A stretch of DNA of 64,000 bases from a virus (Duplodnaviria; Heunggongvirae; Uroviricota; Caudoviricetes). A program made the position numbers and the translations under genes. Positions 1 through 64,000 of this stretch are shown one piece after another. The stretch is taken from the IMG/VR virus record IMGVR_UViG_2939127364_000001. The stretch is one strand, 5' to 3'. The notes beneath the pieces are model-generated. The model was not told the DNA's origin and made no database searches. It saw only the letters and a program-made list of their open reading frames with translations. Position 1 is the stretch's first letter, and every line of letters begins with the position of its first letter.

Positions 1-680
1 ACCCATGTATCGTTATAGAGATACTGGCTACTGTTATCATCGGTAATACGGACCACACGAACCTTGTATGCGCGTCCAGGCTTAGGCAGCTTCAGCTCGT
101 AGCTACGGTAATAAACGCCGGTCTTCTTTGCTGTTAGCTTAATGCCAACGCTTTTTTCACCTTCCGCGACCACATCTACAAATGTTGAGTCGCCATTTGC
201 TATCTGGAACTTGTACTCAACAGTCGTACCGTTCGTGTCACCAGTTTTTTTATCTATGCTTCGCAAAGAAGGAAACTTCATGATGACACGAACCCGATCA
301 GCTTCATCGTTATCGATTGAAACCGTTACATAATGTGTTTTTTTTAACTGGATATTGACGGATTTAGGCGTTTCAACGAAATCAAAGCCAGACATTGGAG
401 TCTGGTCTTGTGAACCGTCGCGAAAATCCCATGTGATTCCGCTGAAGTTGGAGGAACCGTCTTCATTTACAATCGGCAGATCGTCGATAAAAATAGATCT
501 TGCGCCATTTACTAAGCCGCCAATTACCCCTTCCCCAAGAAGATCGAGGATAGCGGCCATTGCACGAGAATTTACGGTATCGTCGGCTTCAACCGGTGTA
601 CGGCTGGAGCTTTTGCTGCTTTTTTTACCACCCGCACCGGCAATAAACAGCGGTAGCTTTTTCTTCTTGAACTGTTCCAT
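1..680 (-). CDS. Tail tip / host-specificity protein J-like, 5' part only (gene runs off the window start)
   Basis: ATG at 678-680 preceded by AAGGA; N-terminus MEQFKKKKLPLFIAGAGGKKSS...RTPVEADDTV; lies directly downstream of the I-like gene as in the lambda I-J order. Absent from ORF track because truncated. Confidence 0.5.
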   Translation of the reverse strand, partial: MEQFKKKKLPLFIAGAGGKKSSKSSSRTPVEADDTVNSRAMAAILDLLGEGVIGGLVNGARSIFIDDLPIVNEDGSSNFSGITWDFRDGSQDQTPMSGFDFVETPKSVNIQLKKTHYVTVSIDNDEADRVRVIMKFPSLRSIDKKTGDTNGTTVEYKFQIANGDSTFVDVVAEGEKSVGIKLTAKKTGVYYRSYELKLPKPGRAYKVRVVRITDDNSSQYLYNDTW

Positions 681-697
681 GTTCAAAAAATCCTTGT

Positions 698-1291
698 TTA
701 CATTAGCTGGTCAATCGTGATTGAAGAACTCACAACCTGTGAGCCAACCAGAATTTCCTCGCCATAGATAAGTTGTACTGGGTTGCCCTGGTTTTCTGTA
801 TTTTGAGGGCCGTCGAAATAATAAGAGTTCGAGTTATCTGCCTGTCTCACACTTTCGTTAGTGGCTTGCGGCGATATGATTTGTGATATGCCGCCCATCA
901 TCAGTGACAAACCGAGAGGTGCTAAAGCAGGCATCACTACCGCCGATACAACCAACAAAGCGGCCCCTACTACCGTCTGAAACCACCCAAAAGCAGATCC
1001 ACCGCTTCCTCGCGGAACAGGTGTAATGCGGATTTTGGCAATGTTGTCAGACTGCCCCATCATCTGATATTCACTTTCGTCAACAGACCACTTGTGGCCC
1101 TGTTTATTGGTGATCTGGATGTGGTAACGGTCATAGGTTTTGATATTGCGCTTCATCCATGCTTTAAACCCAGGCTTGTTGGCCTCAATTAAATCCAGAG
1201 CCTGTTTTGTATTGCGCACCTTTAGATGCCAGTGGCGGCCAAAATGTTTGGCCATAGGGCCGCCAAGCTGCACATGAACTAACTCAGACAC
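698..1291 (-). CDS. Tail assembly protein I-like
   Basis: Hydrophobic central segment and C-terminal PVQLIYGEEILVGSQVVSS resembling lambda gpI (PVLYGEMRVGSRVVSQ); K-I-J synteny. Confidence 0.65.
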   Translation of the reverse strand: MSELVHVQLGGPMAKHFGRHWHLKVRNTKQALDLIEANKPGFKAWMKRNIKTYDRYHIQITNKQGHKWSVDESEYQMMGQSDNIAKIRITPVPRGSGGSAFGWFQTVVGAALLVVSAVVMPALAPLGLSLMMGGISQIISPQATNESVRQADNSNSYYFDGPQNTENQGNPVQLIYGEEILVGSQVVSSSITIDQLM

Positions 1292-2103
1292 GTCTCATCT
1301 CCCTTGAGCAAGTCTCTGTGACGCAAGTGATGCGTCGTATGTTTCTGATACATTCCGCCGTAATAAGCACGACAACTAAGACGGTCGATCTGGTGATGAA
1401 GAATCATTCCATCGCCGATATAAACCGCGCAGTGATCTGGCATTTTCCCGTATTGAATAAAGAAGACGTCCCCACGTTGAGGCTCTGTTCCAGGCGCAAG
1501 CCGTACCAATCCTTCGTTTCGGTAGTTCTGGTCGAGAATGTCGTTATCGCCGGTGTACCACGATGGAATATGCAGGTGTGCGTTCGGGTTTAGTTCGACG
1601 TTAAACTCACGCTTCAAATAGTCCCGACACAACATCCAGCAATCGAATACGCCAAATACATACGGTCTGCCCAGGTATGGCATTTCGAAACCATCAGGTG
1701 TGATCACATTCATCTCGCTAAAATGGAAAGGGGCATCTCCCTCAACATTCTTGCGAATAGCCAGAATCATCCACGGAACTTCCGTCGCTTCGCAGCCTGC
1801 ACGATCGGCATCAGATGCTTCTGCTGATTCATCAGTATGTGAATGCCAGATTGCGATAACATCACCCGCATCCTCTGCCGCCATAATGTCGTCAACGTGC
1901 ATTACAAAAGTGTTCTGCGGGTTCTCCGAAACATTCCGCGCTTCCATAAAGCGATATTTGTCGCCATTAGTTCTAACCAGAAAGCCACACGCTTCATTAG
2001 GGTAGCGATTTATGGCGCAGAGATAGATTTGCTGCATAACGTCAGAGCCAAGCTCAGGGATTGCTTTATTACCCATACCGCGTAGCTCCAATAAATCCGC
2101 CAA
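1279..2103 (-). CDS. Tail assembly protein K-like (JAB/MPN + NlpC/P60-type domains)
   Basis: HSHTDESAEASDAD JAMM-like motif; Cys/His-containing C-terminal half; L-K-I synteny. Start may be internal. Confidence 0.65.
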   Translation of the reverse strand: MADLLELRGMGNKAIPELGSDVMQQIYLCAINRYPNEACGFLVRTNGDKYRFMEARNVSENPQNTFVMHVDDIMAAEDAGDVIAIWHSHTDESAEASDADRAGCEATEVPWMILAIRKNVEGDAPFHFSEMNVITPDGFEMPYLGRPYVFGVFDCWMLCRDYLKREFNVELNPNAHLHIPSWYTGDNDILDQNYRNEGLVRLAPGTEPQRGDVFFIQYGKMPDHCAVYIGDGMILHHQIDRLSCRAYYGGMYQKHTTHHLRHRDLLKGDETCLS

Positions 2104-2800
2104 AATGGATCACACCGTCGGCAAAATAATTCCGACGCGCATTACAGGCGTCATAACGTTTTGTGCAGTAATCCGCACCAGACATAGACGTCTGCTGGTT
2201 ATTTTTGTCGAAATATGGACCGGTATAGCCGCATTCTGGCCCTCGGTATTTCCACGGGCAGGTGTTTTTAATGATCTGACGATACGGCAGTTGCACCCCC
2301 ATCAAATCGAACACACTGGACAATTCAAACTCGACAACCTGATGAGTTTCGAGAGTTTTCTGTTCGATAAACCACATTTCATCCGGGAAATGTTGGTTTG
2401 GATCTGCTGTTGGGTTGCCGTCTTTAAAATTAACGGCATCGAGGAAGCGAGCCAGCGTCATCTTGCGAATAATGCGGCAGCCAACAAGATCGTCGTTTGC
2501 CTGAACTTCCGCAGAGACAGTTCCGGCAAAGTTCGATACCTGAATTTTTGGACGTGGCAACGTTCCCTGGCCAGTTTTGTCAAAGCCTGATGCTTTGATT
2601 GGCCACGGCTCGTATGTCACTCCTTGCCAGACGACCGGTTGCATCAGTTCGTTTGTTCCGGCGTGGAAGAATAGCTTCCCCCCTGAAGTTGTGTTCGACA
2701 TATCCAGTACGAACAACTCAATGAGTGCAGAGGGAGATAAGCTCTGAATATCAGCTTTAATTCCCATTGTTTCATCCTTGAAATAAGTAGGCGCTAACAT
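2069..2800 (-). CDS. Minor tail protein L-like
   Basis: WQGVTYEPWPIKASGF...ARFLDAVNF...CPWKYRGPECGY parallels lambda gpL (WQGRQYQPYPIQGSGF...ARFLDAVNF...CTWTYRGDECGY). Confidence 0.8.
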   Translation of the reverse strand: MLAPTYFKDETMGIKADIQSLSPSALIELFVLDMSNTTSGGKLFFHAGTNELMQPVVWQGVTYEPWPIKASGFDKTGQGTLPRPKIQVSNFAGTVSAEVQANDDLVGCRIIRKMTLARFLDAVNFKDGNPTADPNQHFPDEMWFIEQKTLETHQVVEFELSSVFDLMGVQLPYRQIIKNTCPWKYRGPECGYTGPYFDKNNQQTSMSGADYCTKRYDACNARRNYFADGVIHFGGFIGATRYG

Positions 2801-2849
2801 CCTGTCAGCGCCACAATGATAGTAAATTAGTACTTACTTATCTAGATAC

Positions 2850-3185
2850 TTAAGCCTCAAATACTTGTCTGAATGTAGCTGTTAAGACACAGTACCCCTG
2901 ATATCGCTTGACCGTATGACTGTCACATACAACTACAATCCGTTTTCCTCTTGGATTAACCCAATAGAACGACTCAACGCCTGCTCGCTCAGTCAGGAAG
3001 TCATCGATTGCATTAATTTCGTTGTATGATCTGGTAAAGGTTAACGACCATTCTTCTTTAATACGATTAAGACCTTGAGCCTGTCGCTGCTCGTAGTCAT
3101 CACCAAAATTAAGTACCGTTACATTCGGTTTTACGCTTTTTTCAGATTCGTAATCTGGATACCAATTAAACGTTTGTCTTTCCAT
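2850..3185 (-). CDS. Minor tail protein M-like
   Basis: 111 aa ORF between tape measure and L, same size and position as lambda gpM. Confidence 0.6.
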   Translation of the reverse strand: MERQTFNWYPDYESEKSVKPNVTVLNFGDDYEQRQAQGLNRIKEEWSLTFTRSYNEINAIDDFLTERAGVESFYWVNPRGKRIVVVCDSHTVKRYQGYCVLTATFRQVFEA

Positions 3186-3227
3186 CTCACATCCTTGTGA
3201 GACTGCCCCGGTCGGGGCAGTCGATAG

Positions 3228-6200
3228 TTAGTTACGTTGAGTGTTTGGGTTGAGTGATCCGCCAGGGCGTTTCTCTTGAGCGATAGTCTCAAGCGCGATT
3301 GCTTTCATCCGTTGAGCGGCATTGTTCCATATGCTTTCTGTATCGCCGGATTCAGTTGTGCTACCGTCACTATGGACGTTGATCTCAATTGATACCGGAG
3401 AAAGAACATTTCCTCCTCCACTCATACCATCGGTACTGAGCGTTACAGGGATTGTTCGACCATCAGGCAATGGAACATACGCCTCATTCATATCGCCTTC
3501 CCCAAACAACGCCAATTGAGGTGAGTTGGCGATACCGCCTTTCTGGTATGCCCGGAGCGGGATCACGCCGTCTTTTCCGAATATGCCACCATTTGCAAAC
3601 TTCGGAATTGCAGGAATACCATTCGTGCCATCGGCAGCAGAACTGGTCAGATTGTTGAACCCGGAAGTTGAGCCAGAAGAACCGGACATCAATCCATCGA
3701 ATCCACCACCAGCCCATACTGAAACCAAACCAGATGCAACTGTTGCGCCGAAATTCAACCACTTATTACCAGAGCCGGAAGCATTAGCTCCAAGCATTGC
3801 AAACGCGGCAGACAGCGCGCCGGTAACAGAACTGAGGTTCTGCATCGAGAAGATGGAGTCCTTCACGGCTTTTGTCTCGGCATCTTTGGCTTCAGTGCTA
3901 TCAAATAGCCCTGATACCCAGCTACCAATCGCATTTGTTGCAGTGCCAATTGCGCTGGTGGTCTGCTGTGTTGTTTGCCCCAATCCAGTTACCGAACTGG
4001 ACGTCTCCTTCGTGGCTTCTCCTACCGACTTGTCGCCATTAACAGTGTTGCTTATGCGCACACCTTGATTGGCAACGGCGGAAGCAACCCCGGTGAGCAA
4101 ATTACCACTCTGTGAACTACCAGCTGCGGTGGTTCCCATCCCCAACATGTTCATTAGAGGCAGCGTGATCTGCGACTTCACGACCATATTGGTGATATCT
4201 TTCAAAATGGACTGAGACAGGCTGGAGAAGCTCATCTTCCCGTTAATAACGAAATCAGTCAGGACATCAGTTAAGCCACTAAACAAATCAGTCCAGGTGC
4301 TTTCGATCTGCTCTGCCAGGTTTTCGTATTCCAGTGCCAACTTCTGCGTCGCAGTCCCCGTCTCTTTAATAAGCGCGGTATTGCCAGCAGCAATAAGTTG
4401 ATTGATCTTTTTATCGAACAACTCAATCTGGCTTTGTGAGGCTGTGCCTGACTCAATCGCAGCTTTACGTAAATCCATCAACGCTTTAAGGTTGCGATTA
4501 TAGGTTTCTTCGAAATCAGCAACTTTCTCTTCACGAGACGGCGTATAGCCAGCACTAATAATGGAATCCGCCTCCGGTGCCCAAGTGGAGATCATCTGCT
4601 CAACATTGCGGCGATTAAACATCTCGCGATATTCAGGTGTCGCATTTTTGAGGTCTTCAAGACGTTTTTTCGCCTTGTCGATCATCTCTTGAGTGATGAA
4701 CTCGTTAGGAACCGCATTAGCCAAATCTGTCAGCGATTTCGTTGTATCGCGAAGAGACTGATCAAACGATACCGTAGCCTTAGAGCTTTCACCCATTTGC
4801 CCCATAAGCTGATCGGCTTTGTCCAGAGCCTTCTGATATCCGGCCGCCAGTTTCTGTTGCGCTGCCTGTTCTTTCTTTGCTGCTCTCTCGGCTGCTTTTG
4901 CGGTACGGTTTGCTGCCTTATCTGCTGCTTCTGCATCAAGTTCACGAGCTTTTGTCAGAGTCTTAATTACTGCGATGCGGTCATTTTCTGACAACTGCTC
5001 TAATTTCACATCACCGTAAATTTTCTTCTGTCTTAATTGCTCCTTGAGTTGTCGAGGCCCAACAACAGGTTGACCTTGTAAGTCGTATAATGCGGTACCA
5101 TCGAGATTGACTCTTTGATACCTTTTAGAGTCCATCTGCTGTTTCCAAAAACCAGTCATAGTTTTGGAATTAGCATCAACTGGTGTGCTTGAAAACTCAC
5201 CAATTTTACCGCCATTAATAGAAACCAAGCCGTCCCCAGCTTTCACGCTAAGACTGATTTCAAGGTTCTCCATCCCCTCTTTTACAATCTTCAAAGCCTC
5301 GGTGGTGGCGTCTATCTTTGTCTGGGCTTCTTTTTGCCCCTGCATATCGTTCGACTCTTGGGTCTTTTTGAGCTCTTCAGAGTATGTGGCGAGTTCACCA
5401 AGCCCCTTCTCATAACGAGCTTTATACCCTTTGAGTTTTTGCTCGTCGGCCTGGGCGTACAAACGTCCAAGTTCTGCGTTGTTTTCTGCCCTTAATTTGC
5501 TTTTTTCGTGGTCGGACAAGTCCGACCGCGCGGCAATTTTCTCATTGCTTTTGGTGAGTCTTTCTATCTCTTTGGCGACTGAGGCTATTAATGCATTCCC
5601 TTTCTGGTTGACCGCATCAATATCCTCTCTATATTTCTTAGTAATGCTTTGTTTGATGGTTTCGGCTATGCCGCCATCAAGAGCTTTGGCGACTTCCTCT
5701 CTTTCTTTTCGCGCTTTTTCCAGTTTCTTTTTGCTGTCGTCAACATCGACACCAACTTCGTACGGTCCCGTGTATGCTGAAAAATGCAAGGTTTTGCCAG
5801 TCTCGACTTCTTTTTCCAGTCTGGAGATCTCTCGATCTTTCTTGCTCAGTTCGCTTTCCAGCATCGCGCGATCTGCCTGCGTCATCGCTTCAGGGATTTC
5901 TCTGACTTTGTTTACAACGTCTTCGACTTTCTTCCTCAGACTGCTCATGTGCCAGATCAGCGTCGAAACCGCCGTTACCGCAGCAGTAAAGAAGAACCCT
6001 ATAGGGTTTGCAGCCATGAACGCAGTCAAGCCAGCAAATGCATTGCGAATAGCAAAAATCAATGCAGGGATGGTAGATAGTCCCATGCGTGAGGCTCGAT
6101 TGAAGCGTTTAACGGCTGTCGTCGCAAGATCAAATGTCCCCTGTATTGTGGTGGATACCGTAGCAAAGGTGCTGATCATGCTATTAGCAGTGCCAATGAC

Positions 6201-7811
6201 ACCAGAAATCCCCGATTTGAGGAGTCTGAAGGCCATCGTGACAGCGACGGCTTTGCCGAAAGTGACAACAAGCTCCTGGTTTTTAATCAGCCATTTCGCC
6301 AGGTCACGCAAACCATCAATAGCCGTCGTCAATCCGCTTCCCAACGAGTGAGCAAAAGATGTACCCTCTGCGCTATTCATCAGGGAGGTGAGTTCTTTCA
6401 TTCCCTCTCTTAAAGAAGACAAATAACCAGTCTGGCCTACTTTGTCCGCGAACAGCGTAAAGGCTGTCTTCATTTGCGCCAACGTACCGGTAAATGTGTT
6501 CATCATTTCGGACGCAGCTCCCTCGTTCTGCATCTTCAACTCTTTGAACATAAGTGCCAGTGCGTTTTTGGCTTCTACCGTTCCAGATGCTACAGCTTTA
6601 GTTAACTCGCCCATTGTCAGACCAGCAGCCTTGGCCATTGCGTTCATTGCTGTCGGAATCGCCTCACCTAATTGCTGGCGAAGCTCTTCCATCGATACAA
6701 CACCCTTACCAGACATCTGCTGAACAGCAATGGATGCACGCTTCAGAAGTTCGCTATCACCACCAAAACGAGCAACGGAGTCCACCAGCGCCTTCAGAGA
6801 ACCATCGGTTGGATCTAAGCCAGCAGAACGAAACTTCACGAAGGAGTCTGTTAACGCCTGCATCGCGAACGGCGCATTTTGAGCCATGTCTACGATGTAC
6901 TTCATATCATCAGCGGCAGCCTGGCCCGGGTTGGACTTCTCCTTATTCAACCCTCGAAGCATCACCCGCATACGTTCCATTTCGGCCGCAGCTTCAACAA
7001 TAGGCTTCTGCCACCCAAACATGATGTCAGTAACCGTTCTGGCTGCATCTCCGATCTCGCCAAGCAGGAAAATGTTGCCACGAAGGCCAGAGAACATACC
7101 TCCTTCGTTACTTTTACCGCTATGGCCAGAAGCGCCGCTACGCCGCCCGCTACCACCATCGCCACTTCCAGATGTACGAACGCGTACCGGCTTGCTAATC
7201 AGTTGCTGACGTCCGATAACTTCGTCCATCTGCTCACGAACCTTTTTCAGTCCCTCGGCAGCCTGACTCGTTGTGACACCCCAATTACTGAGTCGCTTCG
7301 TCGTGGTATTAAGGCGCGTATTCATGCCACTCACGGACGCAGAGGCTTCTTTGACCTCCGTACCAAAGCGGCTTGCGCTTTTGCTTGCATAGGTCGCCCA
7401 ATCAGAGAAATCATTTAGCTCTGATTGCACTTTACGTAATGACGCGGTGAGTTTATCTACTGAAGAAGTTGTCGTATCGACGCGCTCAATCAGGGCTTTA
7501 AGACCAGAATTGAGGCTGGTGATGTTGCCACGCATTTTACGCGTAGCATCTGAAGCAAGCTCAAAACCGGCAGCTACATCCTGTAGTTTATCTGCCGTAG
7601 AATCGAGCTTGCTTTCCAGAACGCCAATGATACGGGCGACCGAACCCAAAGAGCGTTCAAAGGTTTGGATTTTTTGAGCAGGCTTTGTTACCTGCTCACC
7701 AAATCGAGTAAGCAGTTTCCCCGCACGATCGATTGACGCTGTAAACTGTTTGTCTTCCAGCGACAGGATAAACTCTACGTTTTGTGACATTCCCTTGTCA
7801 TCCTCTGCCAA
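3228..7811 (-). CDS. Tail tape measure protein
   Basis: 1527 aa, Ala-rich and coiled-coil-like with hydrophobic segments; sits between the G/T chaperone genes and M-L-K-I. Confidence 0.85.
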   Translation of the reverse strand: MAEDDKGMSQNVEFILSLEDKQFTASIDRAGKLLTRFGEQVTKPAQKIQTFERSLGSVARIIGVLESKLDSTADKLQDVAAGFELASDATRKMRGNITSLNSGLKALIERVDTTTSSVDKLTASLRKVQSELNDFSDWATYASKSASRFGTEVKEASASVSGMNTRLNTTTKRLSNWGVTTSQAAEGLKKVREQMDEVIGRQQLISKPVRVRTSGSGDGGSGRRSGASGHSGKSNEGGMFSGLRGNIFLLGEIGDAARTVTDIMFGWQKPIVEAAAEMERMRVMLRGLNKEKSNPGQAAADDMKYIVDMAQNAPFAMQALTDSFVKFRSAGLDPTDGSLKALVDSVARFGGDSELLKRASIAVQQMSGKGVVSMEELRQQLGEAIPTAMNAMAKAAGLTMGELTKAVASGTVEAKNALALMFKELKMQNEGAASEMMNTFTGTLAQMKTAFTLFADKVGQTGYLSSLREGMKELTSLMNSAEGTSFAHSLGSGLTTAIDGLRDLAKWLIKNQELVVTFGKAVAVTMAFRLLKSGISGVIGTANSMISTFATVSTTIQGTFDLATTAVKRFNRASRMGLSTIPALIFAIRNAFAGLTAFMAANPIGFFFTAAVTAVSTLIWHMSSLRKKVEDVVNKVREIPEAMTQADRAMLESELSKKDREISRLEKEVETGKTLHFSAYTGPYEVGVDVDDSKKKLEKARKEREEVAKALDGGIAETIKQSITKKYREDIDAVNQKGNALIASVAKEIERLTKSNEKIAARSDLSDHEKSKLRAENNAELGRLYAQADEQKLKGYKARYEKGLGELATYSEELKKTQESNDMQGQKEAQTKIDATTEALKIVKEGMENLEISLSVKAGDGLVSINGGKIGEFSSTPVDANSKTMTGFWKQQMDSKRYQRVNLDGTALYDLQGQPVVGPRQLKEQLRQKKIYGDVKLEQLSENDRIAVIKTLTKARELDAEAADKAANRTAKAAERAAKKEQAAQQKLAAGYQKALDKADQLMGQMGESSKATVSFDQSLRDTTKSLTDLANAVPNEFITQEMIDKAKKRLEDLKNATPEYREMFNRRNVEQMISTWAPEADSIISAGYTPSREEKVADFEETYNRNLKALMDLRKAAIESGTASQSQIELFDKKINQLIAAGNTALIKETGTATQKLALEYENLAEQIESTWTDLFSGLTDVLTDFVINGKMSFSSLSQSILKDITNMVVKSQITLPLMNMLGMGTTAAGSSQSGNLLTGVASAVANQGVRISNTVNGDKSVGEATKETSSSVTGLGQTTQQTTSAIGTATNAIGSWVSGLFDSTEAKDAETKAVKDSIFSMQNLSSVTGALSAAFAMLGANASGSGNKWLNFGATVASGLVSVWAGGGFDGLMSGSSGSTSGFNNLTSSAADGTNGIPAIPKFANGGIFGKDGVIPLRAYQKGGIANSPQLALFGEGDMNEAYVPLPDGRTIPVTLSTDGMSGGGNVLSPVSIEINVHSDGSTTESGDTESIWNNAAQRMKAIALETIAQEKRPGGSLNPNTQRN

Positions 7812-8067
7812 ATATTTGCATCAGTTGCTCTTTGGCGTCAGGGTCTGCCTTATCCTGGCTTGGATCGTAGACTTTATCTGTTACGACTGGTCTTCCAATC
7901 CTGAGTTGCAAACCCTCCATGAACGCCTTCACAGCCTCGCCATCCGCCTGGGACGCACGAGCGACTTGTAAGTTGCGGACATCCTCTTCCGCACGCAGAC
8001 GGTCTATATTGCGACTGAGCATCCAGAACATCGTGAGAGGAACGTTCAGTAGCTCTAATGGCGACAC
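7798..8067 (-). CDS. Tail assembly chaperone T-like frame (probably made as a G-T fusion by -1 frameshift)
   Basis: Frame is -1 relative to G and stays open upstream of the listed GTG start through the 3' end of G (translated by hand). Confidence 0.45.
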   Translation of the reverse strand: MSPLELLNVPLTMFWMLSRNIDRLRAEEDVRNLQVARASQADGEAVKAFMEGLQLRIGRPVVTDKVYDPSQDKADPDAKEQLMQIFGRG

Positions 8068-8147
8068 GGCGTAGTGAGCAACTACACGACTGAAATAGAA
8101 TCCGAGATCTATTGAGACGGTCCTTGTCCCGGATTCATCGCGGGAAA

Positions 8148-8465
8148 TTACTTTGCCCCTTCGCCAGCCGCTTTTTCGTTTTCTTCATCAATCACTTCCA
8201 TAGCGAAGGTGAAGATCTGCTGGAGTTGCGGAACAGTCAGTTTTTCAAGAACTTCGTCAGGTACTGAAGGGATAACCTTACGAACCAGATCTGCATAAGC
8301 TGTCACTTGCTCAACAGGAGACATGTTCATGAGATCTTTGCCTTCCATCTGCTTGATGGAAACAAAGAGGCCGACGGTCATTTCAACGATGGGATATTCT
8401 TTGCCACCAAATTTGATGCTTTTTTTCGGCGGCAGAATGGAGTCGAGATCGAGTAATTTGGTCAT
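8148..8465 (-). CDS. Tail assembly chaperone G-like
   Basis: 105 aa acidic ORF directly upstream of the tape measure gene, overlapped at its 3' end by the open -1 frame. Confidence 0.55.
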   Translation of the reverse strand: MTKLLDLDSILPPKKSIKFGGKEYPIVEMTVGLFVSIKQMEGKDLMNMSPVEQVTAYADLVRKVIPSVPDEVLEKLTVPQLQQIFTFAMEVIDEENEKAAGEGAK

Positions 8466-8526
8466 GGTTTAAATCCTTTTAAACTCATACAGAGGCCCAT
8501 CCATGGGCCTCTTGGGTTATCACAAT

Positions 8527-9273
8527 TTAGCTTGCGGCAGTTACAGAGACGGCTTTGGTCGCCTTCTTGGCACCGTCATTAGTTGTGAAGGTGATATTGG
8601 CTGAACCGACAGCTTTACCAGTTACCAGTCCGTTCTGATCTACGGTCGCTTTATCAGTCGCATCAGAGCTCCACACGCCAGTCTTATTGGTTGCATCGGC
8701 CGGGGTGAAGGTTGCGCTCAATTGAACTTTAGTGCCCACTTTTACGGTCGGTGAAGACGGGGTCAGCGTGACGCTCTCAACCGGCTTTGGGAGGCTCATT
8801 TTCCCCAACACGCCAGCGTCGTCCGGGTAAGCGGAAAACTCAACTGAGAACACGCGAACGTCGTCAGACTGGTAGGTCATGGTGAAGTTACCCGCGGTTG
8901 CTGCTTTAGGGATGGTCAGAACATAATCCGTCGCATCCTGCGGGGTCAGCACCAACTCTTTCGCAACGTCGATCAGGTTCACTCCCTGCGCAGACGTGAT
9001 GGTTACGGTATCTTCGCCAGAACTCAGCGTGGAACCTGGCATCAGATCGACCATGTTTTTCAACACGGATTCAGCCAGCGGCGCAGTAATGGTGATGTTG
9101 CGGCCCTGGATCAGCTCGGAGATCGTGGTCTGGCCCAGCTGGTCTACGGTCACTTTCAGCGTTTCGGTTGCGATTTCAACCTGAACACCACCTTTGGTGT
9201 AACCCAAATCCACACCACCAAACGACACCTTACAGGCACCAAGTTTGATGTTTTTTACATGGGTATTAGACAT
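8527..9273 (-). CDS. Major tail protein V-like with C-terminal Ig-like (Big_2) domain
   Basis: AAGGAG RBS before ATG at 9273 (MSNTHVKN...); C-terminal VTLTPSSPTVKVGTKVQLSATF...VWSSDATDKATVDQNGLVTGKAVGSANITF is Big_2-like as in lambda gpV. Confidence 0.7.
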   Translation of the reverse strand: MSNTHVKNIKLGACKVSFGGVDLGYTKGGVQVEIATETLKVTVDQLGQTTISELIQGRNITITAPLAESVLKNMVDLMPGSTLSSGEDTVTITSAQGVNLIDVAKELVLTPQDATDYVLTIPKAATAGNFTMTYQSDDVRVFSVEFSAYPDDAGVLGKMSLPKPVESVTLTPSSPTVKVGTKVQLSATFTPADATNKTGVWSSDATDKATVDQNGLVTGKAVGSANITFTTNDGAKKATKAVSVTAAS

Positions 9274-9347
9274 TGATGGAAAACTCCTTTTTCCGTTAAT
9301 TCTACGCATTCATTGCGCTAATAGTAAGTATATACTTACCAATTGAG

Positions 9348-9704
9348 TTAATTCAATAAGTAGCCAGCAAATTCAACAGGAATGCCTGCTTCTATTAATG
9401 CCCCATCATTTTTGGGATAAATGATTGGCATCGCCATCGGTCGTACAAGTCGAAAATACACACCACCAGATTCCGTTTCCTCTACTGGAAACATCTCAAT
9501 GATTTTATTGGCTTTCTCAACCGTCGTAGTAATTGACGAACCACGCACAATGATTGTGAATGATTCGTGATAAAAGCCCTGTAGCTCATGATCGATGCTG
9601 ATGCCGGTATTTGGATTAATAAGCAGGACGCCAGATTTCACATTGGCAGGCAAGTAGTGACAGAAAATGTCAGTCCCGACCGTGCCAATCTTTGCCTTCT
9701 GCAT
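9348..9704 (-). CDS. Tail terminator U-like (start uncertain)
   Basis: Position between Z-like and V-like genes; track ORF extends to 9854 but that would overlap the upstream gene by 120 nt, so the internal ATG at 9704 is preferred. Confidence 0.35.
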   Translation of the reverse strand: MQKAKIGTVGTDIFCHYLPANVKSGVLLINPNTGISIDHELQGFYHESFTIIVRGSSITTTVEKANKIIEMFPVEETESGGVYFRLVRPMAMPIIYPKNDGALIEAGIPVEFAGYLLN

Positions 9705-9732
9705 CAAACTTGCAAACGCTTCAATAAACACA

Positions 9733-10206
9733 TTAACCTCTCGTAAATCCGGCTTTTCTGGCAGCCTCAAGAATCGCTTCTGAGAACTGCTTCTCGCTAA
9801 TTTCCACCGCTCTTTCCAGAAAGTGTGGCCCAACACGGGGTTTAACACCGGCAATTGGTGGGTTTGTCACGTTCTTCATTCGAGAAAGATAACCGAGTCG
9901 GTATTTACCCAGCTCCATGTACTTAGCATAGTCACCTACTTCTACACCCGGATGCCCCTGACGTGGTTTTGCTCCAGACACAGAAAGCTCAATGCGCAGC
10001 CCTGAATAACCTTCTTTAATCACCCTGGCAAAGATAGCTGTCTCCAGAGATCCGGTTTCCAGCGGGGCCATTGCACGGCTGAGGCGCTCAACCAAACGCG
10101 CCAGCTTTTCCATGTCCCGAATAAGATATCGCTTAAATGCTTTCTGGCTGTTGTTGAGTCTATTCCCCGCACGTTTGAACTGATGCGCATCGTATTTCAG
10201 ACCCAT
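9733..10206 (-). CDS. Tail completion protein (Z / HK97 gp10-like)
   Basis: 157 aa ORF in the position of lambda Z; assignment by synteny only. Confidence 0.4.
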   Translation of the reverse strand: MGLKYDAHQFKRAGNRLNNSQKAFKRYLIRDMEKLARLVERLSRAMAPLETGSLETAIFARVIKEGYSGLRIELSVSGAKPRQGHPGVEVGDYAKYMELGKYRLGYLSRMKNVTNPPIAGVKPRVGPHFLERAVEISEKQFSEAILEAARKAGFTRG

Positions 10207-10541
10207 ATATTCGCCCCTACTTCAAGATGCCCAGGTCTTCCTCGTAGCCCCCAGCGGCGATGAACACTGGACACCTTTAATTTTTGACCTTCAAGGATCA
10301 GTACATCATCAAGTTGTACAGCCGCTTCTAAAGGGACAACTAACACAGCATCAAACAGCTCCAGACTCGCCTTACCACGACTACCAGAGCTATCAGCACG
10401 AACTGACGATTTCTCATTACTCTGTTCGAACTTAACCACGCCGACATTCGTCTTCCTGACGAATTGTAATTGCGCCTCACCGTAAACGTTCTTTGCGCCA
10501 AAGCGGTAGATCGCAATTTCTGTTTGCCATGAAATATTCAT
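10197..10541 (-). CDS. Head-tail joining protein (FII-like?)
   Basis: Internal ATG at 10541 with GGGAGAG RBS; small ORF between head and tail modules. Confidence 0.3.
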   Translation of the reverse strand: MNISWQTEIAIYRFGAKNVYGEAQLQFVRKTNVGVVKFEQSNEKSSVRADSSGSRGKASLELFDAVLVVPLEAAVQLDDVLILEGQKLKVSSVHRRWGLRGRPGHLEVGANIWV

Positions 10542-10620
10542 GCTCTCTCCCTGTTGTTGTCGGTCGCTCTCATTACTGGCCAAAAACCCTTTAGACCAAA
10601 AGTAAATAATGCGACTGGCG

Positions 10621-11454
10621 TTACGCACGGCGAACAATCATACGGTTGTTGATGTAACTGACCAGCAAGCGCCAGGTGCTACGAGCCACATGCACGTTTG
10701 CAGCTTTACCGGTACGGTACATGTTGGTTGTTTCACCGATTGACTCTGACAAAATGCCATCCTCTCGTGCTGCGGCAACATCATTGCCATTTGCGATCTC
10801 ACACGCTTCGTTGACAACGGCAAGCATCAACGCTTCTTTGAAGTAGTCAGGGAACTCTTCAAACTTCTCCTGCGTCATCTTTTCCCAATCGACTAAATCA
10901 TGCCGGTACGCTCCATCTGCTCCCCACGGAATGTCATACACATTCAGCATATTTTGAGGGCGATCGTATCGGTCAAAGTCGATACGTAGAATTTTGCGGA
11001 TTGAGAACGGTAAAGTTTTAATTCGTCTGGTAGCCTCAATGAGACGCTTGCGCATTAAGCCTTCACCATCCGACAGCAAAGTGTCCCCATTCAGCATATC
11101 GATCGCCTGCATTTGAGCATCAGCGACAGTTGCAAACGACTGTTCTGGTATCGACAGTTCAAAACTATTCAGCAGAACATACATTTGCCGCTCTTCATGC
11201 GTCAGACCCGATGCAACAGCCTTCACAATGACGTACCGCAGATCGCGTTCTTTCTCAGAGAGCTGGTTATATTCAGCCGACACGACAACCGGAATCGACA
11301 TTTGACCGCTGGTAATTTCTAGCGGCTCGCCATCAACGAGAATAGCCCCGGTGCTGTCCTTTACTGTGTAGGTAGCAGATTCGATATCCAGCACGTTGAA
11401 GGCAAATGAAAGGGAAACAGCTTCACCGCTACGATACGAGTCGATCTGCGCCAT
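10621..11454 (-). CDS. Hypothetical virion morphogenesis protein
   Basis: 277 aa ORF in the structural operon; start codon overlaps stop of the upstream gene (TAATG). Confidence 0.35.
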   Translation of the reverse strand: MAQIDSYRSGEAVSLSFAFNVLDIESATYTVKDSTGAILVDGEPLEITSGQMSIPVVVSAEYNQLSEKERDLRYVIVKAVASGLTHEERQMYVLLNSFELSIPEQSFATVADAQMQAIDMLNGDTLLSDGEGLMRKRLIEATRRIKTLPFSIRKILRIDFDRYDRPQNMLNVYDIPWGADGAYRHDLVDWEKMTQEKFEEFPDYFKEALMLAVVNEACEIANGNDVAAAREDGILSESIGETTNMYRTGKAANVHVARSTWRLLVSYINNRMIVRRA

Positions 11455-11888
11455 TACTCACCGCCTTGTGCTTTCAGGATGCCTTCAATCATCTCGACAA
11501 TTCCTTTCGCTTTGACACCAACCTGATTACCAATCACACGTAGACCGGCAATGCCTTCATTGTCTGCAATTGACTCCAACTCTTCTCGTGTGAAAGTCTG
11601 GATCTGTTTGGCCGGTTCATCTGGTGTCCCACGTTTCATTGGCACAATGTCAGGTGCTGCTGGCTCGGTAATCAGGTCTGCGGTCAACTCGCCACGATCA
11701 CTGTATGCGGCAGACGGAGAAACATTTTTGCCCTCGACTGTTGATGCTCGCATTGAGGCACAAATCCTTTGCTGATCGATAAAAGGCAACTCCGCTACGG
11801 ACACCCCGTTCTCGAACTGAACGCCGCACAACATTCCCGAATAACCGGAAAATTGCGGTTCTAATAAAACAATTTTTGCTGGTTTCAT
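11454..11888 (-). CDS. Hypothetical structural-module protein
   Basis: 144 aa ORF, translationally coupled to the downstream gene. Confidence 0.35.
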   Translation of the reverse strand: MKPAKIVLLEPQFSGYSGMLCGVQFENGVSVAELPFIDQQRICASMRASTVEGKNVSPSAAYSDRGELTADLITEPAAPDIVPMKRGTPDEPAKQIQTFTREELESIADNEGIAGLRVIGNQVGVKAKGIVEMIEGILKAQGGE

Positions 11889-11932
11889 AACGCATTCTCT
11901 CTACATGGGCGGCTTTCGCCGCCCAATATTGA

Positions 11933-12853: not shown

Positions 12854-12860
12854 TTCTCGC

Positions 12861-12894: not shown

Positions 12895-12926
12895 TAACAT
12901 AGATAATTACTTATCTACTGCACTGA

Positions 12927-13802: not shown

Positions 13803-13827
13803 CTATCAATTCCCTTTGATTTAGATG

Positions 13828-58996: not shown

Positions 58997-60902
58997 AGCT
59001 GCGCCCCTCTTTAACTTCGACAGTGATAATTTCCCGGAACCACGATTTCATCTCTTTGTGGGAGATGATCATCACTGTGCCACGTTCACGCGCTTTGGCT
59101 TCCAGAATCCCCATGAGACGCTCCAGACCGGCTGTGTCGAGCGCGTCGTCAATTTCATCACCGATAAATAGCTCGATATTCTTACTGGCGCGACTGGCAA
59201 CCAGATCCTGCAAAGCCAGAGAGCACGCAATACGTACCTTACGCTTCTCACCACCAGACAAAGTCTGGAAGGATTTGCTGGAGCCTGTTTTGATTACGCT
59301 GATATTGAATTTGTCGCGATACTCACCTTTCTTCGTTGTCTCCATTGTCGACCATTCGGCAACGATATTGCCGTCCGACAGCGTGTTGAGATACTCCGCA
59401 GTCCTGATGTTCAGGAAAGGCGTAACGGAGGTCAGGATGTGTGAACGCACGCCTGCTGGGGAGTAAACCTGGCGGGCCTTCTCCAGCAACAGAGCCTGTT
59501 CCTGAATGCTCTTTAACTCATTTTTAAGTACTGCATGATTAGATTTATTGGCAGCCAGGTTGTCTTCATGGCGCTTAATAACGGCCAGAAATGGGTTTGC
59601 TTCCGCCATGATGCGATTCACTTCAGTACGCGCCCGCGCAACCATCGCTTCGACGGCCACAACTTCACGTTCGCGATGACGCAGCGCACTTAGCTCATTG
59701 GTCAGGCGTTCTATTGTGGAGATGATTTCTGAGACGTCGGGTGTGGCTGCGACCAGTGCAGACTCGATACCGAGTGCTTTCTCAAGACGAGTCTTGTGTT
59801 GAGCCACTGCCGCTGCTGATGTCTGCGCAAGGCCGATCTCATTGCGCGCTTGTTCAATGAAGCTCTCCTTCACCGTGGATAAATCTTCTTCGCAGTAGGG
59901 CTTTCCGCACGTAATGCAGGGTGCCCCGATCTTTGTGCTGACCTCTTCAGCTTTGGTTTTAAACGAGCGAGCACGGTTTATCGACTCGTTCTGTGCCGCT
60001 TCTGAAGTACGGATGCTTGAGCGGATCTCAGTAATAGCACTGCGCACCTTCAGCAGTTTGGCGTCATGCTCTTCTTTGGAGGCCAGCTTGCTGCGTTCGC
60101 CAGCAATCGCATTTTCCGTATCACGGATCTGTTCTGGCAGCGAGCGAATTTCCATCTCGACTTCAGACAGTGTTACCTCCGCGCCAGCCAAATCGGCTCG
60201 GGCCTTGTCCAGACGCTCGCCGCGATCGCGCTCCCAGCTTTCAGAGGACGCTTTGGCCGCCTCAATCTCTGACTGTGCAGTCTCGATAAGCGTGAGACAG
60301 GCGTCCATTTTGGATTTGGTAACGTCCATACGTGCGGCAGCTGCATTAGCACGCTCGCGGGCAATGGCATAGGCTCGCGTCAATCGGTCGACGCCAGCAG
60401 CTTCTTCAACGATGGTTTTGAGGCTCTTGTCGGACATACCGGGCAGATCTGGCATCGCTTCCTGACTGGCGTAGATGGACGCCATGAACACCTCTTTCGA
60501 TGCCCCAATCAGACGTTCTACGAACGTCTGTGTCAGCGTGTCCTTGCCTTTGGTCATATCACCGTCTTCACCACGGACGATTAGTCGGTTCTTGAACTCT
60601 TTGTGTTTACGATGGCGAATGATCGCGTATTTCTTACCTTCGTCTTCAACTGTAACCATCACACGGCAGTTCTTCTCATGGCCCGTCGACAGCACGTCAT
60701 CGCCTTTGACGCCATGTGCAGTCTCACCATACAGACACCACATTAAGCTATTCATCAGAGTGGATTTCCCGGCGCCATTGCTGGCAGCAGACGTATCGCC
60801 ACTGTTCACACCCTGGATCAGCACCAGTCCACGCTGGTCTAACTCGACTTCTGCGCTGGCGATTGCCATAAAATTTTCAACCTGGAGCTTTAAAAACTTC
60901 AT
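58986..60902 (-). CDS. SbcC/Rad50-like SMC ATPase
   Basis: N-terminal MKFLKLQVENF...GLVLIQGVNSGDTSAASNGAGKST (Walker A), long coiled coil, C-terminal LSGGEKRKVRIACSLAL and FIGDEIDDALD; track ORF is over-extended to 61148. Confidence 0.75.
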   Translation of the reverse strand: MKFLKLQVENFMAIASAEVELDQRGLVLIQGVNSGDTSAASNGAGKSTLMNSLMWCLYGETAHGVKGDDVLSTGHEKNCRVMVTVEDEGKKYAIIRHRKHKEFKNRLIVRGEDGDMTKGKDTLTQTFVERLIGASKEVFMASIYASQEAMPDLPGMSDKSLKTIVEEAAGVDRLTRAYAIARERANAAAARMDVTKSKMDACLTLIETAQSEIEAAKASSESWERDRGERLDKARADLAGAEVTLSEVEMEIRSLPEQIRDTENAIAGERSKLASKEEHDAKLLKVRSAITEIRSSIRTSEAAQNESINRARSFKTKAEEVSTKIGAPCITCGKPYCEEDLSTVKESFIEQARNEIGLAQTSAAAVAQHKTRLEKALGIESALVAATPDVSEIISTIERLTNELSALRHREREVVAVEAMVARARTEVNRIMAEANPFLAVIKRHEDNLAANKSNHAVLKNELKSIQEQALLLEKARQVYSPAGVRSHILTSVTPFLNIRTAEYLNTLSDGNIVAEWSTMETTKKGEYRDKFNISVIKTGSSKSFQTLSGGEKRKVRIACSLALQDLVASRASKNIELFIGDEIDDALDTAGLERLMGILEAKARERGTVMIISHKEMKSWFREIITVEVKEGRSYVV

Positions 60903-61131
60903 ATAACACCTCTGATATCGTGTGTTAACTTTTGACCATCTTTCAATCTGAACTCCGTATGCGCGGGGAAGGATCTGCGATTCAATAAGCCTTTTCTGGT
61001 TAGCCTTCCAAGATAAAACGCTACGGGATTTCCTCCTGAAGGGTATGGCTTGTGAAACATAACCGTCTGGCCTTTTTGAAGTTTTTTCATCACGATGGCA
61101 AACTCTCGAAAGCTCCCATAATAACGTTGCC

Positions 61132-62217
61132 TCACACAGCCTCCGCACTCTCTGCTTCGGTCAAGATCTCCTGACACAGTATGTCCAGCTTGCTCAGGTC
61201 GAAGCCACCGTCAGTGTCGTGAACGATCTTGCAGTACGCCGCAACGGACTCGCCCAGGCTGTCAATTTTGCTGGTTTCCGCAGTACTGGCAGCGCCTTCC
61301 ATCATCGATGCCTTGCGAATGAAGTTGCAGACGACACCCTTCGCGCCCATTGTTTTCAGGACGTTCTGAAGTTTGATGCCTTCTTCATCGCTCTCAACAA
61401 CGGCACGGAAGCGCACGTAGTTGCCGCGAATCTGATCGTCATCTACATCGTCCTCAAGGTTCACGAATTTAGGTGCCGAGGTTTCGTGGTGAGTGAATGA
61501 GCCGTCCGGTTTGACGATCATGAAGCCGGCCAGTGAACCAACATCCCCCCAATTCTGGTGTGTCAGCGCCCCGATACTTACCACTCCAGGCAGCACTTCT
61601 TTGTGGTTGTGGTAGTGCCCGGACAACAATAAACGGAAGCCGATATCTTTCAGTTCCTGTGCGTCGATGCCGACATCGGGCATGGTGGGGATCGCTTTGT
61701 TGATTGAGGTATGTACAACAACATCATGGTTGTCACCATCCAGCCCGGAACGCAGCGTTTTGAGATCGCTGATAAGTTCTGCGTGGTTATTACGCCAGCT
61801 AATCAGATGGACGGTTACGTCGCCCATTTTGATGGAATGAGGACGTTTGCCGCAGACGATTTCCACACCGATTGAGCGCAGAGAGGCTGCTGCATTGGCG
61901 CTGTATACGGAATTGTTGGTTTCGAGGTCGTGGTTGCCAGCCAGCATTACCACCTTGAGACCCAACTCTTTGATGATCCACTCGTAAGTTTCGGTCACGA
62001 AATGCAGAACGGAAGGTGATATAGCACCGCGAACATGGAAGGTATCACCAGCTACCAGCATGTGCTTACAGCCAGCAGCTTTCATCGCTTTGGCCGCCTC
62101 CTTCGTAGCGTCCAGTTGGATCTCCAGCCGAGAGTTAAGCCCGTCAGCGTTTGTTGTCGCAAAAGCATCCCAACGATGATAATGGGGATCTGATATTACC
62201 CCGTATGGCAATGTCAT
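61132..62217 (-). CDS. SbcD/Mre11-like metallophosphoesterase nuclease
   Basis: DPHYH, GDTFH, GNHD and GHYH calcineurin-like phosphoesterase motifs. Confidence 0.75.
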   Translation of the reverse strand: MTLPYGVISDPHYHRWDAFATTNADGLNSRLEIQLDATKEAAKAMKAAGCKHMLVAGDTFHVRGAISPSVLHFVTETYEWIIKELGLKVVMLAGNHDLETNNSVYSANAAASLRSIGVEIVCGKRPHSIKMGDVTVHLISWRNNHAELISDLKTLRSGLDGDNHDVVVHTSINKAIPTMPDVGIDAQELKDIGFRLLLSGHYHNHKEVLPGVVSIGALTHQNWGDVGSLAGFMIVKPDGSFTHHETSAPKFVNLEDDVDDDQIRGNYVRFRAVVESDEEGIKLQNVLKTMGAKGVVCNFIRKASMMEGAASTAETSKIDSLGESVAAYCKIVHDTDGGFDLSKLDILCQEILTEAESAEAV

Positions 62218-63258: not shown

Positions 63259-63344
63259 AATTCTTGTTCAAATAATTTTGTCCGGGGCAACGATAACGGA
63301 TAAGGCGCACCGGAGTTTGCAAATGCCTGTTTACTTATTCACTT

Positions 63345-63420
63345 TATTCACAGGCCCGATCCAATATTTAGATCCCCAGAGAGATCCTACAGAAGATCAA
63401 AAGAGATCCCAGATCGTCTC
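63345..63420. promoter_or_regulatory. Origin-like leader, unit 1: DnaA-box-like sequence plus six GATC sites in about 60 bp
   Basis: TTATTCACAGG then CCGATCC, AGATCCCC, GAGATCC, AGATCAA, GAGATCCC, AGATCGT. Confidence 0.45.
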
Positions 63421-63458
63421 CAGCGCTTGCGGTTACTGGCTTGAGAAGGGGTTACTAT

Positions 63459-63557
63459 CCACTATAGGGAGCAAAATAACCACTGTAGAGAGCATAATAA
63501 CCGCTATGAAGAGCAAAACAACCTCTCTGGAGAGTAGTCGGTATCCACTGTAGTGAG
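63459..63557. repeat. Iterons, family 2, array 1 (5 copies, 21-bp period)
   Basis: CCACTATAGGGAG, CCACTGTAGAGAG, CCGCTATGAAGAG, CCTCTCTGGAGAG, CCACTGTAGTGAG starting at about 63459, 63480, 63501, 63522, 63545. Confidence 0.7.
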
Positions 63558-63714
63558 TAGGAGACAATGTTTTAACTGGATAACTCCGAGCCTGTTTTTC
63601 TGCGGCAGATGGCTGATATTCTTGGAAATATTGTAAATTTTGCGCTGCGGCGTGTTTATTTCGATCACACATTATCCCCAGAAGGGGAGTGATGCCTGAT
63701 TTTGTAATTATCTG

Positions 63715-63800
63715 ATTTTTATACACAGGCCCGATCCAGTAATTCAGATCCCTGTTAGAACCAAAGAGAACCACAAAGACCCAAAGAGATCCCCGGCCCC
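63715..63800. promoter_or_regulatory. Origin-like leader, unit 2: DnaA-box-like sequence plus GATC sites
   Basis: TTATACACAGGCCCGATCCAGTAATTCAGATCCC ... AAAGAGATCCCC; homologous to unit 1. Confidence 0.45.
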
Positions 63801-63841
63801 TGCAAACCGTTGTGCCACATGGCTTTAGAGGTTATCGATAT

Positions 63842-63960
63842 CCACTATAGTGAGAATAACAACCACTATAGAGAGTAAATCAACCACTATGGAGAGTAGA
63901 AAAACCGCTGTAGGCGGTAGGATAACCACTGTGATGGGTGCTACTATCCACTGTAATCAG
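63842..63960. repeat. Iterons, family 2, array 2 (6 copies, 21-bp period)
   Basis: CCACTATAGTGAG, CCACTATAGAGAG, CCACTATGGAGAG, CCGCTGTAGGCGG, CCACTGTGATGGG, CCACTGTAATCAG starting at about 63842, 63863, 63884, 63905, 63926, 63948. Confidence 0.7.
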
Positions 63961-64000
63961 TAAAGGCACCCAAGCCGTCGAATAAAAAGAGACATTTGGA

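Follow-up and report, generated by a model that had tools for sequence, protein, structure and literature searches.

The DNA considered here is a stretch of 64,000 nucleotides (nt) from a tailed virus of the class Caudoviricetes (IMG/VR record IMGVR_UViG_2939127364_000001), referred to below as the window, in which a first-pass annotation had reported phage-like genes and no integrase, immunity repressor, attachment (att) site or lysis cassette. Gene calls were made from a list of open reading frames (ORFs), guided by the RefSeq annotation of pYLMB53a, an Escherichia coli plasmid that is 98.9% identical to the left part of the window. According to that annotation and to matches in PHROGs (phrog_32, 30, 18 and 14), the left end of the window is a lambda-like tail module (1–9309, minus strand). 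It comprises the N-terminal 228 amino acids (aa) of J, which runs off the left end, followed by I, K (a C40 peptidase), L, M, the tape measure protein (3228–7811), chaperones and an Ig-domain major tail protein. The head, connector and packaging module (9348–18226, minus strand), likewise identified from the annotation and PHROGs, is 80% identical at the nt level to genes 001–020 of Salmonella phage SSU5. Its products are neck proteins, an Ig-like decoration protein, the major capsid protein, a scaffold protein, the portal, the large terminase subunit TerL (16338–17594) and a DNA-binding protein resembling the small terminase subunit TerS (17594–18226).

The right end of the window holds an origin-like region (63340–63965, plus strand), just upstream of the position at which repA starts in the relatives of this element. 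The region consists of two units with a spacing of approximately 380 bp; both contain a DnaA box, a stretch rich in GATC and a share of an array of 21-bp iterons. The DnaA boxes are TTATTCACA / TTATACACA, at positions 63344–63352 and 63719–63727. The iterons (core CCACTRTAGnGAG) are present in nine copies, all in one orientation, between 63459 and 63960, as found from Tandem Repeats Finder arrays and repeat families; their pattern is matched 11 times where 2.3 matches are expected, and none of 100 shuffled sequences reached 11. The repA gene itself (Rep3_N/Rep3_C) lies just past the window end and is seen in relatives only. An ORF that overlaps the origin-like region (63433–63774, minus strand) is probably spurious.

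The reported lack of an integrase, an immunity repressor, any att-like feature and a lysis cassette throughout the 64 kb was borne out by profile, similarity and tRNA scans. For the profile scans, ORFs were concatenated and match coordinates were traced back to single ORFs. None of the 53 unannotated window ORFs matched a PHROGs family in the 'lysis' or 'integration and excision' categories, and the same was true of 10 structural and ParB ORFs; of the approximately 73 window ORFs covered by PHROGs in all, none was recognized as an integrase, CI/Cro-type repressor, holin, endolysin or spanin. Pfam searches with 47 of the 53 ORFs, and NCBIfam searches with 10, returned no integrase, resolvase, holin, lysozyme/endolysin, spanin or HTH_3/CI/Cro family. 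The remaining window ORFs, approximately 25, were classed by the RefSeq annotation of the 98–99% identical plasmid, which assigns them to tail, capsid, portal, terminase, helicase, metG, apbC, hsdMSR and nucleotide metabolism functions. Similarly, tblastn comparisons of the window with the holin, endolysin, Rz, Rz1, integrase, helix-turn-helix (HTH) repressor, ParA and RepA of the related phage Cyrano gave no match (best E value 0.085), and none was obtained at E ≤ 0.1 with the Ant protein, the repressor-like SSU5_116 or the excisionase (xis)-like SSU5_054 of SSU5. tRNA genes are common att targets; no tRNA gene was found in a scan of the window, and therefore it offers no tRNA-type att target. 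Additionally, Rfam at the gathering threshold revealed no known regulatory RNA in the window. After the PHROGs and Pfam searches, approximately 25 window ORFs are without a functional assignment.

Individual genes that might supply the missing functions were evaluated one at a time. The C40 peptidase (1279–2103, minus strand) was rejected as an endolysin because it is a lambda K-like tail-tip protein (phrog_30, 'minor tail protein'). A hydropathy scan picked out small membrane ORFs at 27002–27268, 47066–47224 (DUF3927, TciB-like), 47743–47931 and 32824–33393; a muralytic neighbour or a lysis PHROG was found for none of them, and a canonical holin–endolysin–spanin cassette is absent from the window. 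An ORF with the PHROGs description 'transcriptional repressor' (25482–26042, plus strand) was rejected as the immunity repressor, as it encodes an FljA-like repressor of phase-1 flagellin (Pfam PF03614, Flag1_repress, 3.7e-67 over the full length; phrog_1444). Its start is likely to be near 25518, its product shares 68% aa identity with SSU5_121, and its counterpart in Cyrano is CYRAN_114. It is a moron and not a phage immunity repressor. The conservation of this gene in SSU5 and Cyrano raises the possibility that the phage-plasmid may modulate host flagellin expression; a literature search on fljA and phage-plasmids found no paper linking the two.

The only S24 protein of the window is a 129-aa UmuD'-like protein (37557–37946, minus strand; Pfam Peptidase_S24; phrog_811 'UmuD-like', 3e-53). 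It had been described as lacking a DNA-binding domain, and this is confirmed by a phmmer alignment with UmuD' (PDB 1UMU_A; E value 6.7e-23), in which query residues 2–118 align with UmuD' residues 1–114 and GFPSPAADY is identical. As the alignment starts at UmuD' residue 1, there is no DNA-binding domain; the protein begins at the equivalent of UmuD Gly25, after the cleavage site, and is without the N-terminal domain. Therefore, the combination of HTH and S24 domains that characterizes cleavable repressors of the CI/LexA type is not present. A consensus LexA box, TACTGTATGGATAAACAGTA, at 37965–37984 ends 18 nt upstream of the start codon. By its sequence, the protein appears to be a LexA box-controlled, pre-processed UmuD' analogue like HumD of phage P1, unrelated to immunity. 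A second LexA-box match in the window, at 30647, was treated as a chance occurrence, as it lies within an ORF, is not AT-rich, and 0.9 such matches are expected. The UmuD'-like gene is adjoined by a gene for a homologue of the theta subunit of DNA polymerase III (HOT-like; 38045–38296, minus strand; Pfam PF06440, 2.1e-29; phrog_1105), and the umuC partner is absent from the window. The two genes correspond to the humD/hot pairing of phage P1.

The region upstream of TerS is occupied by a gene for an 88-aa protein and by an operon. The operon, which had been reported as a ParB/ABC/GNAT operon, is indeed present: it consists of five genes between the helicase gene and TerS (18699–21843, minus strand; phrog_723, 930, 293, 886 and 796), encoding two proteins with a ParB N-terminal domain, an ABC-type ATPase, a 299-aa ATPase/acetyltransferase-like protein and an 84-aa protein. 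It is kept across the family (SSU5_125 onwards; CYRAN_119–122). However, a role in partition did not hold up; ParA is encoded outside the window, and the operon is not a partition locus. PADLOC applied to 10 ORFs of the operon and its neighbourhood gave generic ATPase and ParB-domain matches only and no known defence system. The 88-aa protein (18423–18689, minus strand), encoded directly upstream of TerS, is the equivalent of CYRAN_123, which is annotated in Cyrano as 'DNA binding domain containing protein'. A single-sequence AlphaFold2 (AF2) model has a predicted local distance difference test score (pLDDT) of 85–88 over residues 1–55, with the topology H-H-H-β-β. Its top Foldseek matches are the LexA DNA-binding domain, DtxR, MecI and HrcA, with probabilities of up to 0.99 but E values of at least 0.14; NCBIfam matches to Sta1, Lrs14 and LexA were all below threshold, and a PDB sequence search yielded nothing informative. 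The model suggests that this is a probable winged-helix DNA-binding protein. As the sole stand-alone regulator candidate beside the late genes, it is a candidate regulator of late genes or packaging.

Comparison with sequence collections identifies the element to which the window belongs. In megablast searches, window positions 1–25000 are 96.8% identical to Escherichia phage CMS-2020a, 97.5% to Cyrano and 93.6% to PhiR41_1; identities are approximately 80% for Klebsiella phage-plasmids and 80.5%, over 68% of the query, for SSU5. Taken together, these Escherichia phages and hundreds of plasmids fall in an identity range of 94–99%. The same 25 kb matched 821 plasmid records in PLSDB, of which 780 are typed as non-mobilizable, and most are IncFIB and approximately 110 kb in size. 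The top match is pYLMB53a (NZ_CP073940.1; 112,732 bp, circular, IncFIB, non-mobilizable), with 98.9% identity over 99% of the query, and the middle and right parts of the window are collinear with the same plasmids. Window position 1 corresponds to position 49,326 of pYLMB53a, within the tail-tip gene J, and window position 64,000 to the final base of that record, base 1 of which is the start of repA. These end points imply that the window represents approximately 58% of a circle of about 110 kb. Furthermore, the terminase, portal, capsid and tail genes form a collinear array shared with SSU5 and its relatives, with PHROGs matches gene by gene. The SSU5 supergroup of phage-plasmids includes the groups SSU5_pHCM2, pKpn, pSLy3 and pMT1 (Pfeifer et al. 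2021, PMC7969092; review table in PMC11652158). The window is very likely a 64-kb arc of a circular, ~106–113-kb E. coli phage-plasmid of this supergroup, on the Cyrano/pLF82-like branch, with the sought functions on the uncovered part. Judging from host, size and replicon type, it probably falls in the pSLy3 group.

In Cyrano and pYLMB53a, the ~45–50 kb that correspond to the uncovered part encode not only a lysis cassette but also a tyrosine recombinase and an HTH repressor, in agreement with the suggestion of the first-pass annotation that such functions might lie outside the window. The Cyrano lysis genes CYRAN_22–25 (holin, endolysin, Rz and Rz1) follow the tail fibre, approximately 8.4 kb beyond the equivalent of window position 1 (8740–10158 of the extracted Cyrano stretch, L005). 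Likewise, in SSU5 the genes for the tail fibre and Cor are immediately followed by those for a putative holin (SSU5_026), an endolysin (027) and Rz-like spanins (028–030). A lysis cassette had been expected near the terminase; in this family, a position after the tail fibres is instead the normal layout. In pYLMB53a, the holin (95% aa identity) and endolysin (99%) are encoded at 38,372–39,401, which is 9.9–11.2 kb to the left of the window start, and are labelled by RefSeq as 'hypothetical' and 'membrane protein', respectively. The holin and endolysin of Cyrano had no match in Pfam. The endolysin was recognized by phrog_873 ('endolysin', 3e-88) and by PDB entry 7Q47 ('Endolysin', 6.8e-54), and Rz and Rz1 by spanin PHROGs. 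The endolysin carries a C-terminal hydrophobic (transmembrane) helix, and we take 7Q47 to be the unusual membrane-anchored endolysin of phage Enc34. Because both the holin and the endolysin are invisible to Pfam, Pfam-based screens will wrongly score these phage-plasmids as having no lysis genes.

Beyond the lysis genes, Cyrano encodes a KacT toxin–antitoxin pair, ParA (CYRAN_28; ParA/MinD families), DnaB, a primase and a ligase and, further on, an 'Integrase' (CYRAN_44), an HTH 'putative repressor' (CYRAN_45), DnaE, recombination genes and RepA (CYRAN_63; Rep3_N/Rep3_C). CYRAN_44 matches PF00589 (6e-10) and phrog_1 (1e-46). This recombinase gene lies approximately 24 kb to the left of the window and is convergent with the gene for the 128-aa putative repressor; the latter and a 70-aa gene point away from each other, much like cI and cro. 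CYRAN_45 matches phrog_8 ('transcriptional regulator', 1e-11) and, weakly and below threshold, HTH_19; a PDB sequence search with it returned nothing informative. It is expressed in lysogens, and Misson et al. 2023 (PMC9928086, Table 1) name it as the reference master repressor. The corresponding pair in pYLMB53a, a 'site-specific integrase' and a 'transcriptional regulator', is at 24,418–25,902. Among Escherichia records in PLSDB, 236 have the structural module, 229 the lysis cassette and 228 the recombinase/repressor pair (the latter two each ~97% of the first). An integrase-family gene is present in the relatives, and the element as such is therefore not one that lacks an integrase. That both small modules fall within the other 42% of a ~110-kb replicon has a probability of ~0.18 at random by our estimate, and is statistically unremarkable.

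The distribution of the family is that of a plasmid. Of 5,426 complete E. coli genomes, 239 (~4%) carry the head and packaging module (window 9300–18300), and all 254 of its places are on plasmids and none on chromosomes. Together with the 821 plasmid records and the putative iteron origin within the window, this substantiates the plasmid-like lifestyle that had been proposed. In the relatives the flanks are plasmid DNA, with tail fibres on the left and repA on the right, and not the chromosomal sequence that the first-pass annotation had named as a refutation. Across thousands of genomes, elements of the P1, N15 and SSU5 types are reported to be exclusively extrachromosomal, and SSU5-like elements, including those of Enterobacter, are inducible by mitomycin C (Pfeifer et al. 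2022, PMC9600943). Cyrano is present at ~5.5 copies per cell, makes virions (observed by quantitative PCR and transmission electron microscopy) and is induced 39-fold by ciprofloxacin (PMC9928086). Worded as alternatives in the first-pass annotation, the plasmid lifestyle and the location of the functions outside the window are supported as being true together.

On this basis, a life cycle can be outlined. As shown for the relatives, the prophage would not integrate and would be maintained as a low-copy IncFIB-type plasmid. For this replicon, the origin with iterons and DnaA boxes at the right-hand window end would be used for replication by RepA, encoded just beyond it, and partition would depend on a ParA system encoded outside the window. 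Lysogeny would be kept by the small HTH repressor. DNA damage, again as shown for the relatives, would trigger the lytic cycle, and lysis would be effected by the holin, the membrane-anchored endolysin and the spanins encoded behind the tail fibres. By analogy with Cre in P1, the tyrosine recombinase most likely resolves plasmid multimers rather than integrating the element into the chromosome, in which case no attP/attB would be expected.

Several points weigh against this explanation. Its best relatives in the plasmid, phage and E. coli genome collections are 97.9–98.9% identical and none is exact, and the content of the uncovered part is taken from these relatives. Compared with the structural module, ~3% fewer Escherichia records contain the lysis cassette, and ~3% fewer the recombinase/repressor pair, which SSU5 itself is without. 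The literature searched contains no experimentally defined immunity repressor, recombination site or lysis gene for the family; the roles proposed for CYRAN_45 and the recombinase come from annotation and inference, and the putative relation of RepA to the iterons from their positions and from IncFIB typing.

Among the alternatives, the one that survives best is that part of the lysis–lysogeny control is in fact encoded in the window and has gone unrecognized, in the 88-aa protein, in a 92-aa protein (23470–23748) or in other ORFs. The winged-helix fold predicted for the 88-aa protein is in keeping with this, as are the 12-fold transcription above background in lysogens of CYRAN_117, the orthologue of the 92-aa protein gene, the ~25 window ORFs without a function and the uncharacterized state of the family's switch. 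However, neither sequence nor profile searches linked any of these proteins to a family of repressors, antirepressors, Cro proteins, holins or endolysins, the AF2 model of the 92-aa protein is of low confidence (pLDDT 65), and the relatives have a credible cI/cro-like pair elsewhere on the replicon, so that only a small chance is given to this explanation. A ribbon-helix-helix fold considered for the 92-aa protein was unsupported, the model being too poor for a fold search, and a PDB sequence search with this protein was uninformative. It is very improbable that the replicon has genuinely lost its genes for lysis and/or for the control of lysogeny and is a defective derivative living only as a plasmid. 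The shortfall of ~3% noted above would fit such a loss, as would one E. coli SSU5-like element that is not inducible by mitomycin C (PMC9600943) and the insertion sequence (IS) elements and cargo insertions seen in relatives; against it, the closest relatives all carry the modules, and the structural, packaging and DNA-metabolism genes of the window are intact long ORFs, collinear with those of the functional phage Cyrano. Finally, an integrated lambdoid prophage with int/xis, att, immunity and lysis genes just outside the window, beside chromosomal genes, is effectively refuted despite its lambda-like tail and head genes and the chromosomal core genes metG and apbC (99% and 95% aa identity to K-12), which could pass for a flank: metG and apbC lie amid phage-plasmid DNA at the same place in Cyrano and pYLMB53a, every one of the head-module places is on a plasmid, the window ends in a putative iteron origin, next to which repA starts in relatives, and it contains no integrase family, tRNA gene or att-like feature.

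The gap in the window is explained by the cutting of the window from a larger phage-plasmid, together with the known lifestyle of such elements, and this is already known biology; the SSU5-type family has been described since 2012 and surveyed in detail since 2021. In practical terms, when a phage-like stretch shows no int, att and lysis genes, it should be examined for hallmarks of plasmids, such as the putative iteron origin found here inside the window.

For the immunity and induction circuit of the family, the sequence upstream of the recombinase gene, outside the window, provides a testable starting point in the form of a conserved LexA box and an inverted repeat. In a scan of the 64-kb window and of Cyrano positions 18,000–67,999, the only consensus LexA box found besides that of the umuD'-like gene is ahead of the recombinase gene. 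The core of this box ends 28 nt before the start codon and overlaps a TTGATC-17-TAATAT promoter, including the -10 element. The box is retained in the Klebsiella plasmid pJN2-26, where the recombinase is 82% identical, despite divergence of the surrounding spacer DNA. A perfect 12-bp inverted repeat, ATGATTCCATAC-N7-GTATGGAATCAT, ends 53–55 nt upstream of the box; the stretches containing both repeat and box are at 22961–23064 of the Cyrano stretch (L005), 25931–26032 of the pYLMB53a stretch (L002) and 1372–1470 of the pJN2-26 stretch (L007). The repeat was not found in the window or in SSU5, which is without the recombinase. A scan of IMG/VR for the repeat returned 101 contigs, which brought the total to 104 loci. 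Of these 104, 101 encode a homologue of the recombinase (59–100% aa identity), and in 94 of these 101 it starts 96–101 nt downstream of the repeat. A CTGT-N8-ACAG box follows the repeat by 53–55 nt at 92 of the 104 loci, in at least 15 sequence variants with a variable interior, and four different 7-bp spacers occur among the 104 repeats. From this architecture, the inverted repeat could be the core site of the recombinase (lox/dif-like) or an operator.

The recombinase gene and the 3' end of the repressor gene, which is convergent with it, have 6 nt in common in Cyrano as well as in pJN2-26. Speculatively, SOS-driven transcription from the recombinase promoter could, because of this overlap, interfere with expression of the repressor. 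The HTH repressor has no S24 domain, and DnaE-type replication genes lie downstream of the recombinase on the same strand. It is conceivable, if rather doubtful, that host LexA directly gates a recombinase-led early transcript that runs antisense through the repressor gene and takes the place of repressor cleavage or an antirepressor. By analogy, there is a hint of a combination of GIL01-like use of LexA with 186/P2-like convergent interference, in a design that would lie entirely outside the window. A literature search on a recombinase-promoter arrangement of LexA and interference found no paper.

Comparison with known systems places the window closest to Cyrano (pLF82 of E. coli LF82; OV696614 / NC_011917) and pYLMB53a: nt identity is 97–99% across the structural module, the genes are collinear from one end of the window to the other, and the metG/apbC, S24, FljA-like, ParB-operon and nucleotide-metabolism genes are the same. 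Cyrano has been shown by experiment to be an active, SOS-inducible plasmid prophage (PMC9928086). The window and Cyrano differ in gene content: Ea22/Eaa-like genes and a DUF4942 gene occupy the place in Cyrano that is taken in the window by a type I restriction-modification system. Additionally, the window is without nrdAB, which follow the resolvase gene in both Cyrano and SSU5, and has an HNH endonuclease gene instead. The head, tail and packaging genes of SSU5 (NC_018843) are ~80% identical at the nt level and follow the same module order; common to SSU5 and the supergroup are a lysis cassette after the tail fibres, an IncFIB-type RepA, siphovirus morphology and a size of ~100–110 kb. In contrast, the Ant-like antirepressor and the repressor-like gene of SSU5 are both absent from the window.

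Phage P1, whose gene functions are reportedly those set out by Lobocka et al. in 2004, has the lifestyle that is proposed for this element: RepA acts at an origin with iterons and DnaA boxes, partition functions are encoded, and the prophage carries a tyrosine recombinase but does not integrate. It is also similar in its accessory genes, which include the UmuD' analogue HumD, the polymerase III theta homologue HOT and TciA/TciB-like genes. However, the virion genes are unrelated (P1 is a myovirus, and the window encodes a lambda-like siphovirus), there is no homologue of the C1/Coi/Ant immunity proteins here, and the recombinase is not Cre. With lambda, the window shares homologous J, I, K, L, M and tape measure proteins and the order of head and tail genes. 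It differs from lambda in having no int/xis/attP beside the tail genes, no S24-domain CI and no lysis genes upstream of the terminase, and the element would replicate as a plasmid.

The remainder of the window consists largely of accessory and metabolic genes. The host genes metG (34229–36262, minus strand) and apbC/mrp (36420–37520, plus strand) have been captured and are divergent, as on the E. coli chromosome, with the same annotation in pYLMB53a and Cyrano. The apbC homologue is expressed in Cyrano lysogens. The near-identity of this 3.3-kb metG–apbC segment to the chromosome could permit homologous recombination; nevertheless, the phage was not seen on a chromosome in any of the 5,426 genomes. 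Fimbrial genes of the yeh type, chromosomal neighbours of mrp–metG in K-12, are likewise carried by pYLMB53a.

A DNA and nucleotide metabolism block (48584–62217, minus strand), delineated from RefSeq annotation, PHROGs, Pfam and the Cyrano annotation, encodes RNase H, a Dam-like methyltransferase, a 3'-5' exonuclease, an AAA ATPase, DHFR, a phosphatase/Pnk-like protein, thymidylate synthase, a MazG-like protein, a RuvC-like resolvase, an HNH endonuclease and SbcC/SbcD-like proteins. The HNH endonuclease gene (57498–58274) lies between the gene for the RuvC-like resolvase and the gene upstream of that for the SbcC-like ATPase, at a place that is empty in Cyrano, and may be a homing-endonuclease insertion. 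Elsewhere, approximately 1.5 kb (31300–32800) is without credible ORFs, those present having an odd composition and no PHROGs or Pfam match; the stretch has only scattered short repeats and no Rfam match, and is unannotated in pYLMB53a.

The type I restriction-modification genes hsdM, hsdS and hsdR (38649–44765, plus strand) were identified from the RefSeq annotation of the relative. Perfect 12-bp tandem repeats are present at 40104–40126 (1.9 copies, at the end of hsdM) and at 40760–40787 (2.3 copies, in the middle of hsdS); a change in the number of central hsdS repeats is a known route to specificity switching. Finally, two genes at 45404–46302, matching phrog_425 ('membrane associated protein') and phrog_557 ('outer membrane protein'), are situated amid the accessory genes, far from the tail module, and their PHROGs families are shared with SSU5_023/024, which come after the SSU5 tail fibre.

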